Origin: Giardia intestinalis
Taxonomy: Eukaryota
DNA length: 64,000 bases
Reading direction: 5' to 3' (one strand)
Assembly (NCBI GenBank): GCA_000002435.2
Contig: CM018793.1
A program made the position numbers and the translations under genes. Position 1 is the stretch's first letter. Each line of letters begins with the position of its first letter. The notes beneath the pieces are model-generated. The model made no database searches and was not told the origin of the DNA. It worked only from the letters and a program-made list of their open reading frames with translations. Below, one piece after another: positions 31,039 through 35,334 of the stretch.

Positions 31039-34000
31039 CTACGCTTTGCCCCGGCAGAGGAACCACCAGCAGAGGAAGCCGACGAGGCCCCCGACGACGA
31101 TGACAGCGGCCACAGCGATGCCAGCTATGGCGCCCGTGGAAAGGCCGCTCTTGTTGACGCTAGAAGATATGCACCTGTTCTGTCCGGCGACCGGGCCGTA
31201 TCCTCCCTCGCACTCGCACACCTTCTGGTTGGGGGCAGAGTTCGGCGGGCAATCTGCGGCACAGCTCTTCCCGTCGACCTGTATGTTGTGAGAACTGTCG
31301 GTGCATGCCGTGCAGGTCTGGTCGGCAGGGTTGCAGGTCTGGCAGCCCGCCGCACAGCCTGCGCTAGGATTCTGTTCGCACCTGTTCTGTCCGGCGACCG
31401 GGCCGTATCCTCCCTCGCACTCGCACACCTTCTGGTTGGGGGCAGAGTTCGGCGGGCAATCTGCGGCACAGCTCTTCCCGTCGACCTGTATGTTGTGAGA
31501 ACTGTCGGTGCATGCCGTGCAGGTCTGGTCGGCAGGGTTGCAGGTCTGGCAGCCCGCCGCACAGCCTGCGCTAGGATTCTGTTCGCACCTGTTCTGTCCG
31601 GCGACCGGGCCGTATCCTCCCTCGCACTCGCACACCTTCTGGTTGGGGGCAGAGTTCGGCGGGCAATCTGCGGCACAGCTCTTCCCGTCGACCTGTATGT
31701 TGTGAGAACTGTCGGTGCATGCCGTGCAGGTCTGGTCGGCAGGGTTGCAGGTCTGGCAGCCCGCCGCACAGCCTGCGCTAGGATTCTGTTCGCACCTGTT
31801 CTGTCCGGCGACCGGGCCGTATCCTCCCTCGCACTCGCACACCTTCTGGTTGGGGGCAGAGTTCGGCGGGCAATCTGCGGCACAGCTCTTCCCGTCGACC
31901 TGTATGTTGTGAGAACTGTCGGTGCATGCCGTGCAGGTCTGGTCGGCAGGGTTGCAGGTCTGGCAGCCCGCCGCACAGCCTGCGCTAGGATTCTGTTCGC
32001 ACCTGTTCTGTCCGGCGACCGGGCCGTATCCTCCCTCGCACTCGCACACCTTCTGGTTGGGGGCAGAGTTCGGCGGGCAATCTGCGGCACAGCTCTTCCC
32101 GTCGACCTGTATGTTGTGAGAACTGTCGGTGCATGCCGTGCAGGTCTGGTCGGCAGGGTTGCAGGTCTGGCAGCCCGCCGCACAGCCTGCGCTAGGATTC
32201 TGTTCGCACCTGTTCTGTCCGGCGACCGGGCCGTATCCTCCCTCGCACTCGCACACCTTCTGGTTGGGGGCAGAGTTCGGCGGGCAATCTGCGGCACAGC
32301 TCTTCCCGTCGACCTGTATGTTGTGAGAACTGTCGGTGCATGCCGTGCAGGTCTGGTCGGCAGGGTTGCAGGTCTGGCAGCCCGCCGCACAGCCTGCGCT
32401 AGGATTCTGTTCGCACCTGTTCTGTCCGGCGACCGGGCCGTATCCTCCCTCGCACTCGCACACCTTCTGGTTGGGGGCAGAGTTCGGCGGGCAATCTGCG
32501 GCACAGCTCTTCCCGTCGACCTGTATGTTGTGAGAACTGTCGGTGCATGCCGTGCAGGTCTGGTCGGCAGGGTTGCAGGTCTGGCAGCCCGCCGCACAGC
32601 CTGCGCTAGGATTCTGTTCGCACCTGTTCTGTCCGGCGACCGGGCCGTATCCTCCCTCGCACTCGCACACCTTCTGGTTGGGGGCAGAGTTCGGCGGGCA
32701 ATCTGCGGCACAGCTCTTCCCGTCGACCTGTATGTTGTGAGAACTGTCGGTGCATGCCGTGCAGGTCTGGTCGGCAGGGTTGCAGGTCTGGCAGCCCGCC
32801 GCACAGCCTGCGCTAGGATTCTGTTCGCACCTGTTCTGTCCGGCGACCGGGCCGTATCCTCCCTCGCACTCGCACACCTTCTGGTTGGGGGCAGAGTTCG
32901 GCGGGCAATCTGCGGCACAGCTCTTCCCGTCGACCTGTATGTTGTGAGAACTGTCGGTGCATGCCGTGCAGGTCTGGTCGGCAGGGTTGCAGGTCTGGCA
33001 GCCCGCCGCACAGCCTGCGCTAGGATTCTGTTCGCACCTGTTCTGTCCGGCGACCGGGCCGTATCCTCCCTCGCACTCGCACACCTTCTGGTTGGGGGCA
33101 GAGTTCGGCGGGCAATCTGCGGCACAGCTCTTCCCGTCGACCTGTATGTTGTGAGAACTGTCGGTGCATGCCGTGCAGGTCTGGTCGGCAGGGTTGCAGG
33201 TCTGGCAGCCCGCCGCACAGCCTGCGCTAGGATTCTGTTCGCACCTGTTCTGTCCGGCGACCGGGCCGTATCCTCCCTCGCACTCGCACACCTTCTGGTT
33301 GGGGGCAGAGTTCGGCGGGCAATCTGCGGCACAGCTCTTCCCGTCGACCTGTATGTTGTGAGAACTGTCGGTGCATGCCGTGCAGGTCTGGTCGGCAGGG
33401 TTGCAGGTCTGGCAGCCCGCCGCACAGCCTGCGCTAGGATTCTGTTCGCACCTGTTCTGTCCGGCGACCGGGCCGTATCCTCCCTCGCACTCGCACACCT
33501 TCTGGTTGGGGGCAGAGTTCGGCGGGCAATCTGCGGCACAGCTCTTCCCGTCGACCTGTATGTTGTGAGAACTGTCGGTGCATGCCGTGCAGGTCTGGTC
33601 GGCAGGGTTGCAGGTCTGGCAGCCCGCCGCACAGCCTGCGCTAGGATTCTGTTCGCACCTGTTCTGTCCGGCGACCGGGCCGTATCCTCCCTCGCACTCG
33701 CACACCTTCTGGTTGGGGGCAGAGTTCGGCGGGCAATCTGCGGCACAGCTCTTCCCGTCGACCTGTATGTTGTGAGAACTGTCGGTGCATGCCGTGCAGG
33801 TCTGGTCGGCAGGGTTGCAGGTCTGGCAGCCCGCCGCACAGCCTGCGCTAGGATTCTGTTCGCACCTGTTCTGTCCGGCGACCGGGCCGTATCCTCCCTC
33901 GCACTCGCACACCTTCTGGTTGGGGGCAGAGTTCGGCGGGCAATCTGCGGCACAGCTCTTCCCGTCGACCTGTATGTTGTGAGAACTGTCGGTGCATGCC

Positions 34001-35334
34001 GTGCAGGTCTGGTCGGCAGGGTTGCAGGTCTGGCAGCCCGCCGCACAGCCTGCGCTAGGATTCTGTTCGCACCTGTTCTGTCCGGCGACCGGGCCGTATC
34101 CTCCCTCGCACTCGCACACCTTCTGGTTGGGGGCAGAGTTCGGCGGGCAATCTGCGGCACAGCTCTTCCCGTCGACCTGTATGTTGTGAGAACTGTCGGT
34201 GCATGCCGTGCAGGTCTGGTCGGCAGGGTTGCAGGTCTGGCAGCCCGCCGCACAGCCTGCGCTAGGATTCTGTTCGCACCTGTTCTGTCCGGCGACCGGG
34301 CCGTATCCTCCCTCGCACTCGCACACCTTCTGGTTGGGGGCAGAGTTCGGCGGGCAATCTGCGGCACAGCTCTTCCCGTCGACCTGTATGTTGTGAGAAC
34401 TGTCGGTGCATGCCGTGCAGGTCTGGTCGGCAGGGTTGCAGGTCTGGCAGCCCGCCGCACAGCCTGCGCTAGGATTCTGTTCGCACCTGTTCTGTCCGGC
34501 GACCGGGCCGTATCCTCCCTCGCACTCGCACACCTTCTGGTTGGGGGCAGAGTTCGGCGGGCAATCTGCGGCACAGCTCTTCCCGTCGACCTGTATGTTG
34601 TGAGAACTGTCGGTGCATGCCGTGCAGGTCTGGTCGGCAGGGTTGCAGGTCTGGCAGCCCGCCGCACAGCCTGCGCTAGGATTCTGTTCGCACCTGTTCT
34701 GTCCGGCGACCGGGCCGTATCCTCCCTCGCACTCGCACACCTTCTGGTTGGGGGCAGAGTTCGGCGGGCAATCTGCGGCACAGCTCTTCCCGTCGACCTG
34801 TATGTTGTGAGAACTGTCGGTGCATGCCGTGCAGGTCTGGTCGGCAGGGTTGCAGGTCTGGCAGCCCGCCGCACAGCCTGCGCTAGGATTCTGTTCGCAC
34901 CTGTTCTGTCCGGCGACCGGGCCGTATCCTCCCTCGCACTCGCACACCTTCTGGTTGGGGGCAGAGTTCGGCGGGCAATCTGCGGCACAGCTCTTCCCGT
35001 CGACCTGTATGTTGTGAGAACTGTCGGTGCATGCCGTGCAGGTCTGGTCGGCAGGGTTGCAGGTCTGGCAGCCCGCCGCACAGCCTGCGCTAGGATTCTG
35101 TTCGCACCTGTTCTGTCCGGCGACCGGGCCGTATCCTCCCTCGCACTCGCACACCTTCTGGTTGGGGGCAGAGTTCGGCGGGCAATCTGCGGCACAGCTC
35201 TTCCCGTCGACCTGTATGTTGTGAGAACTGTCGGTGCATGCCGTGCAGGTCTGGTCGGCAGGGTTGCAGGTCTGGCAGCCCGCCGCACAGCTTGCCTGTG
35301 TTACCGCACAAACTAGGAGAAATCCTACCAACAT
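31039..35334 (-). CDS. Variant-specific surface protein (VSP) with about 20 identical tandem 69-aa Cys-rich repeats
   Basis: N-terminal signal peptide [15 protein letters not shown]; body rich in CXXC motifs (CQTC, CTAC); C-terminal TM helix [26 protein letters not shown] followed by the VSP-defining CRGKA and a stop; VSP extended poly(A) element immediately downstream. Confidence 0.9.
   Translation of the reverse strand: [1431 protein letters not shown]
31171..35289. repeat. Tandem array of about 19.9 copies of a 207-bp unit (coding repeat of the VSP gene)
   Basis: The ORF track shows identical 65-aa antisense ORFs recurring every 207 bp (31301, 31508, ... 35234). The unit encodes [69 protein letters not shown]. 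Copies look nucleotide-identical by inspection. Confidence 0.9.

Follow-up and report, generated by a model that had tools for sequence, protein, structure and literature searches.

GL50803_00112693 (vsp51), a tandem-repeat VSP gene on chromosome 5 of Giardia intestinalis WB

What kind of gene consists almost wholly of one repeated unit, and how far can the number and the uniformity of its repeats be trusted? The question is raised by a stretch of 64,000 nucleotides of Giardia intestinalis DNA (contig CM018793.1 of assembly GCA_000002435.2; this whole stretch is hereafter referred to as the window), in which an earlier note, based on the letters of the sequence, described a minus-strand variant-specific surface protein (VSP) gene built from about 20 identical 207-bp tandem repeats. 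The analysis reported here indicates that this is very probably an intact gene for a type I membrane VSP, whose ectodomain consists solely of 19.9 identical, cysteine-rich modules of 69 amino acids, namely GL50803_00112693 (vsp51) on chromosome 5 of Giardia WB.

The array and the encoded protein

Tandem Repeats Finder identified one array only in the 64-kb window (31171..35295, period 207, 19.9 copies). A comparison of the minus strand with itself at a lag of 207 gave 0 mismatches over 4121 nt (35291 to 31171), and when the array was cut into units, the 19 complete 207-nt units proved to be one identical string, accompanied by a partial unit of 188 nt. This identity is far beyond chance. Each 207-nt unit translates into 69 residues, with 10 Cys and 2 CXXC motifs.

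The array is contained in a minus-strand open reading frame (ORF; 31039..35334) that starts with ATG and encodes 1431 residues. The protein reads, in order, as a 14-residue leader, 19.9 copies of the 69-aa unit, a 13-residue stalk, a 25-residue transmembrane (TM) segment, CRGKA and the stop. Its periodicity is broken only at the first residue of unit 1 (S for G) and by the absence of the EQNPSAG linker after the last unit. The earlier note is therefore exact in its coordinates, unit size and unit number (19.9 units, 0 mismatches, 31039..35334), and the protein anatomy upholds its description of the ectodomain as consisting of the array and nothing else. A TAG stop, followed by ATGTAGACTTAGGTAGTAAATGCTG, lies at the 3' end of the coding sequence. 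The features of the gene are as follows:

31039..35334, minus strand: complete VSP coding sequence GL50803_00112693, 1431 aa, TAG stop at 31039-31041 (ORF translation, Pfam PF03302, 2022 catalogue row)
35330..35336, minus strand: initiator (Inr) TAATGTT, which includes the ATG (35332-35334) (sequence; Adam 2010 and 2022 catalogue)
35293..35334, minus strand: signal peptide of 14 residues (translation; the published SignalP call is 3 residues longer, at 17, to ...SCA at 35284)
31171..35291, minus strand: tandem array, 19 complete units and a 188-nt partial unit, identical (self-comparison; published consensus pattern #10)
31132..31170, minus strand: membrane-proximal stalk of 13 residues, homologous to the inter-unit linker region (translation, alignment A1)
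31057..31131, minus strand: TM helix of 25 residues (translation; one TM domain in the catalogue row; helix at residues 91-109 of the AlphaFold2 model)
31042..31056, minus strand: cytoplasmic CRGKA tail (translation; invariant in alignment A1)
31014..31033, minus strand: extended VSP poly(A) element GACTTAGGTAGTAAATGCTG, with its AGTAAA core at 31019-31024 (sequence; the same 20-mer at +9..28 in supplementary file 5 of the 2022 catalogue)

Two further long ORFs cross the array (30472..35316, plus strand, 1614 aa; 31125..35288, minus strand, 1387 aa). They were rejected as genes, being the other stop-free frames of the repeat unit: they exist because the 64%-GC unit contains no stop in those frames, and because 207 is a multiple of 3. 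A scan for bacterial promoters and terminators, a type of scan irrelevant to a eukaryote, found nothing.

Membership of the VSP family is supported by several features. Pfam PF03302 (VSP) matches residues 1298-1431 with 76 bits, against a cut-off of 31.4, and 139 relatives were retrieved when the protein, cut down to two units, was used as the query of a homologue search, all the named ones being Giardia VSPs or mis-named VSP-domain proteins. The translation opens with a hydrophobic N-terminal stretch, in line with a published positive SignalP call (Y), and the 1431-aa protein is rich in cysteine (203 Cys, or 14.2%, with 40 CXXC motifs). The TM helix and the CRGKA tail are both present, the tail columns being invariant over 41 relatives (alignment A1). 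An extended poly(A) element of the ACTYAGRTAGTRAAY type follows the stop, and an Inr is found at the ATG, both of which are recorded for this gene in published tables. No GGCY motif, which is frequent in larger VSPs, is found in the 1431-aa protein. This is no bar to membership, since the published definition omits GGCY and consists of a signal peptide, a TM helix and CRGKA only (Xu 2020). With an in-frame array (207 = 3 x 69) of 19.9 identical units, the gene also belongs to the tandem-repeat subclass of VSPs, which numbers 30 WB genes in one catalogue (Adam 2010) and 36 of 136 in another, from 2022 (both described below). The VSP call of the earlier note, made from the signal peptide, CXXC-rich body, TM helix, CRGKA and poly(A) element, is thus borne out, all of these being present and both Pfam and the 2022 catalogue row agreeing with it.

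The repeat unit itself looks like the generic furin-like/EGF-like modules common to all Giardia Cys-rich families, and could for that reason suggest a protein of another such family (HCMP/CRMP or tenascin-like). The tail, the TM helix and the poly(A) element rule this out: the CRGKA tail is exact, the helix is of VSP type, and the poly(A) element is that of VSPs. Considering also the Pfam match and the nearest relatives, which are all VSPs, I give a non-VSP identity next to no chance of being correct.

A structural model of the module, comprising a single unit and the tail, was produced with AlphaFold2 from a 41-sequence alignment. The model has a confidence score (pLDDT) of 82-89 across the unit and possesses short beta-hairpins, with a C-terminal helix corresponding to the TM segment. 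The 69-aa module is therefore predicted to fold like furin-like/EGF-like disulfide-rich hairpins, in agreement with the SMART furin-like/EGF calls that have been published for VSPs in general.

The catalogued gene and its copy number

The array gene is a known one: it is the annotated and catalogued GL50803_00112693 (vsp51), present in the reference annotation as well as in two published catalogues of VSPs. Proteins encoded around it match WB proteins of the 4,018,654-bp chromosome 5 contig exactly (GL50803_009283, GL50803_0030448, GL50803_0014921, RFC subunit 2 and GL50803_008922). The older catalogue (Adam 2010, PMC2996952) lists vsp51 as GL50803_112693, in clade III, with the label 'TR207', on chromosome 5 and with the Inr TAATGTT, at a size of 258 aa with 33 Cys and 6 CXXC. 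The 2022 catalogue (bioRxiv 10.1101/2022.03.07.483299), which is based on the 2020 PacBio reference, has it as GL50803_00112693 / XP_001708046.2 / NC_051860.1, with 4296 nt, 1431 aa and 20 copies of consensus #10, with 203 Cys (14.19%), 20 CXC, 40 CXXC and 40 CXXXC, and with a 17-residue signal peptide, one TM helix, CRGKA, and GACTTAGGTAGTAAATGCTG at +9..28. My own counts for the 1431-aa ORF equal these values, and the minus strand of the window contains consensus #10, in that register, exactly 19 times. The tail and the poly(A) element, which the earlier note had proposed to compare with VSP catalogues, both match the row for GL50803_00112693. The locus consequently adds no new biology, and is an ordinary, documented repeat-containing VSP.

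A full-text literature search for '112693' returned no Giardia paper, the gene appearing only in supplementary tables, and GL50803_00112693 is not among the entries of the structural-variant tables of Pollo 2020. In the vsp51 row of supplementary table 1 of Adam 2010, the alternative C-terminus is CRGKL, in place of the CRGKA encoded in both the window and the 2007 protein, and the repeat number is 2, though the 2007 protein has 3 units. Both are probably table errors.

The copy number differs strikingly between assemblies. In the 2007 assembly the protein (XP_001708046.1, the top protein match) shares its leader, unit and tail with the present one, but is 258 aa long and contains only 3 units. 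These three Sanger-era units are identical to each other and to the units of the window. The difference between 3 units in 2007 and 20 in 2020 is most simply explained by assembly collapse, and it had been cautioned that repeat copy numbers may be condensed by assembly (Adam 2010, PMC2996952). Short-read assemblies fare no better at this locus: the 7 non-redundant Logan contigs that carry GL50803_009283 all end at 35552-35617, short of the array and 220-280 nt upstream of the ATG. The end base of one contig is unlike that of the window (A for C at 35554), and a paralogous locus in DH (described below) has the corresponding sequence there. Since this end base matches the paralogue and not the window, the contigs probably break because of the paralogous copy of the 5' flank, and not because of the tandem array. 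The earlier note had warned of an assembly hazard, and the 3-unit protein of 2007 and the short-read contigs that stop just upstream of the gene give substance to this warning.

The same observations could be turned against the array as assembled. The locus would then be real, but the 20 copies, or the absolute identity of the units, would have arisen from a long-read consensus with short-read polishing, while the true alleles differ. The 3 units of 2007, the caution about condensed repeats and the 7 independent short-read contigs that fail to enter the gene all fit such an artefact, as do the Illumina correction of the PacBio draft and the greater allelic variation around VSPs (both from Xu 2020). 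Giardia has, furthermore, a tetraploid genome, for which the assembly gives one consensus only. However, an array of 4.1 kb is well inside PacBio read length, and units from a Sanger-era assembly show the same identity. Related arrays elsewhere, in GS, a metagenome and P15 (see below), are also 100% identical, although these are possibly collapsed too and hence silent on copy number. I therefore regard an artefact as unlikely; and because the array fits within PacBio reads and the Sanger-era units are identical, one in copy number or identity would be unlikely to change the picture.

Alleles of two other repeat VSPs, vspA6 and vspC5, are known to differ in repeat copy number, and the vspA6 repeat is immunodominant (Adam 2010, PMC2996952). 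By analogy with these, the copy number of the GL50803_00112693 array may be hypervariable between clones.

The duplicated segment and the assemblage E position

Where did the 69-aa module come from? A single unit together with the tail can be aligned, over the full length of both, with 'mini-VSPs' of 110-160 aa (alignment A1), and the module is the equivalent of the whole ectodomain of such a single-unit mini-VSP. The nearest of these are P0003 (127 aa, 81-82% identity), encoded on the 1,539,535-bp contig of WB, and P0007 (77-79%) of DH, which belongs to assemblage A2. At the DNA level, a DH locus (L001) aligns with the window on both sides of the array, over 35581-35102 (5' flank, leader and first unit) with 79% identity, and over 31350-26519 (last unit, tail and 4.5 kb of 3' flank) with 88%. 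As a candidate orthologue this locus was rejected: only 26519-31350 and 35102-35581 align, the outer flanks are unmatched, and L001 corresponds better to the other, paralogous locus.

Two genes adjacent to the VSP also have a twin of more than 90% identity on the 1,539,535-bp WB contig. These are GL50803_00112695 (29342..30688, plus strand), whose twin is GL50803_00113433, and the gene for the ankyrin protein 112696 (28141..28776, minus strand), whose twin is ARP-1, KAE8302095. The paralogous WB locus is thus deduced from protein accessions on that contig together with DH L001. From the twin genes, the single-unit P0003 and the DH alignment, I infer that ~26.5-35.6 kb of the window is segmentally duplicated. 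The copy on the other chromosome, and its DH counterpart, would have kept a single-unit VSP, while the chromosome 5 copy would have gained 19 further units. A GC-rich island round the VSP (25000-35500; 55-67% GC vs 42-50% outside) coincides with the duplicated segment, the flanks of which are:

35335..35581, minus strand: 5' flank also present at the paralogous single-unit VSP locus, the DH copy being 79% identical (alignment to DH)
26519..31038, no strand: GC-rich 3' flank common to the paralogous locus, 88% identity to DH L001, carrying GL50803_00112695, 112696 (ankyrin gene) and a kinase remnant with a frameshift (alignment to DH)

The kinase remnant (26793-27850, minus strand) is a NEK-like homologue that matches a 353-aa kinase of the DH paralogous locus. 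It is split over two frames near 27675, and is probably a frameshifted pseudogene. Its amino-acid identity of 66-75% is low for a DNA identity of 88%, which suggests relaxed constraint in the duplicated segment. GL50803_00112695 is convergent with the VSP, their ends lying ~350 nt apart when measured from the VSP stop, and has been modelled with 448 aa (2007) and 442 aa (2020). It has no Pfam domain, lies in DNA of 63-67% GC with several open frames, and has published values of 0.4-6.7 sense and 0 antisense transcripts per million (TPM); it may be a spurious ORF. On the other side of the VSP, GL50803_0030448 (35917..37038, plus strand) and GL50803_009283 (37025..44266, minus strand) are convergent, and overlap by 14 nt at their 3' ends (37025-37038).

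Among repeats amplified elsewhere, the 207-nt unit is related to the 216-228-nt units of other WB VSP and pseudo-VSP genes (68-84% identity over 66-182 nt), but unrelated to the 195-nt vspA6 unit and to the 105-nt unit class, with only an 11-13-nt chance match to the latter. Further arrays, each 100% identical, are found in GS (222 bp x 2.9), in a human-gut metagenome contig (228 bp x 1.9) and in P15 (114 bp x 2.6). All three were assembled from 454 or short reads, so that the copy numbers given are probably minima. When metagenomes were scanned for the junction between 207-nt units, no matches were obtained. The GS array corresponds to P0002 (283 aa, 57% identity), the nearest assemblage-B relative, with 3 x 74 aa encoded at L002:593-1240 of contig ACGJ01001902.1. 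It lies 517 nt from the contig end, and its copy number is probably collapsed too. P0002 was rejected as a syntenic counterpart, as neither of its flanks matches the window.

A counterpart by position is found in P15, of assemblage E. Its locus L012 is collinear with the window over 35779-47042, with 88% identity, and just past the orthologue of 30448, in the same orientation as in the window, encodes a VSP of 428 aa (L012:8060-9346, minus strand, contig ACVC01000193.1). This protein resembles that of WB in its leader (MLIGLLLVCVVVRI) and has the conserved tail, but between them lie 2.6 repeats of another unit, of 38 aa (DECPIENCQTCSGDKRTCEACKPGFVANGDNTVCSPAP), and a non-repetitive body; it has no Pfam match on record. 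At the DNA level only its 3' tail aligns with the window, and synteny stops at the VSP. This fits the published account of VSP, NEK and ankyrin-protein regions as places where synteny is lost (Xu 2020). The same position is therefore occupied in WB (assemblage A1) by 207 bp x 20, and in P15 by 114 bp x 2.6, which is unrelated to it and precedes a non-repetitive body. A speculative and rather doubtful reading of this contrast is that of a conserved 'slot', where the ectodomain cassette would be exchanged between a lasting 5' leader and 3' tail, with fresh, homogeneous N-terminal arrays arising repeatedly and independently. If, on this reading, the four genome copies also differed in array length, the locus would yield antigens of different sizes with no need to switch genes. 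With a single-unit paralogue and a different assemblage E array at the same position, the locus is in any case convenient for studies of the origin and uniformity of VSP arrays.

Uniformity, expression and known repeat VSPs

How might such an array have grown, and remained uniform? Unequal recombination or replication slippage between 207-nt units could have expanded it from a single-unit ancestor, and the same exchange or slippage could keep it uniform. The reading frame would survive changes in copy number because 207 = 3 x 69. The 0 differences over 4.1 kb point either to expansion in the recent past or to homogenisation that is still going on. Under an assumed, rather than measured, rate of 1e-9 to 1e-10 substitutions per site per division, a rough calculation puts the first substitution in the array at ~2e5 to 2e6 divisions.

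One VSP is expressed per cell, according to the literature. Were GL50803_00112693 the VSP chosen for expression, the coat protein on the cell surface would be long, highly repetitive and probably immunodominant, and a change in copy number would alter its size, not its epitope. In published RNA-seq data for 7 samples, the gene has 0.6-2.2 sense and 0-9.7 antisense TPM, compared to ~20,000 TPM for the expressed VSP (VSP417) (2022 catalogue, bioRxiv 10.1101/2022.03.07.483299). This near-silence is normal for a non-selected VSP and does not mark the gene as dead; it is compatible with switching, but is not proof of it.

The low sense TPM in all seven samples, and the presence nearby of a kinase remnant with a frameshift and of a GC-rich ORF that is itself doubtful, could also point to a silent or decaying VSP copy, intact in sequence but never selected: a repeat-inflated relic in a gene-poor duplicated segment. 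However, all non-selected VSPs are near-silent in a clonal population, so that low values are to be expected. The ORF runs for 4.3 kb without a break and comes with an intact Inr, signal peptide, TM helix, CRGKA and poly(A) element, and curators have classed GL50803_00112693 as a VSP and not as a pseudo-VSP. Nothing specific speaks for a relic that is never expressed, and I consider it quite improbable compared to an intact VSP gene that is simply not the one selected.

GL50803_00112693, at 258 aa in one reference assembly and 1431 aa in the next, is a clean example of a shift in the length of a surface-antigen gene. Proteomic, RNA-seq and comparative work that relies on the old model or on short-read assemblies will mis-size or miss it. 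In addition, reads map ambiguously over 4.1 kb of identical units, which makes per-gene expression values and variant calls there unreliable.

How, finally, does this gene compare with known systems? XP_001708046.2 (vsp51, TR207) is the same in chromosome, neighbours, length, unit, copy number (20), Cys and CXXC counts, signal peptide, TM helix, tail and poly(A) element, with no difference from the 2020 reference. The mini-VSPs P0003 and P0007 have the type of signal peptide in common with GL50803_00112693, and the DH copy the flanking DNA as well, but possess one unit where this gene has 20. At the level of the fold, the predicted one-unit model bears a modest likeness to furin-like Cys-rich repeats (Fu1-Fu2 of R-spondin; the Cys-rich domains of EGFR and IGF1R), which implies no functional relation. 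Among the repeat VSPs, vspA6 / CRP170 (vsp67, GL50803_221693) likewise has a long N-terminal array of around 20 near-identical units (~22 copies of a 195-bp repeat), which is immunodominant and variable in number. In contrast to GL50803_00112693, its array is followed by a non-repetitive body of ~1.3 kb, and its 195-nt unit is unrelated to the 207-nt unit. The architecture is also that of vspC5 (vsp90), in which ~25 copies of a 105-bp repeat extend from the leader to the conserved 3' end, giving the same order of leader, repeats and tail; its unit is unrelated and half the length, and allelic variation in copy number is known for it.

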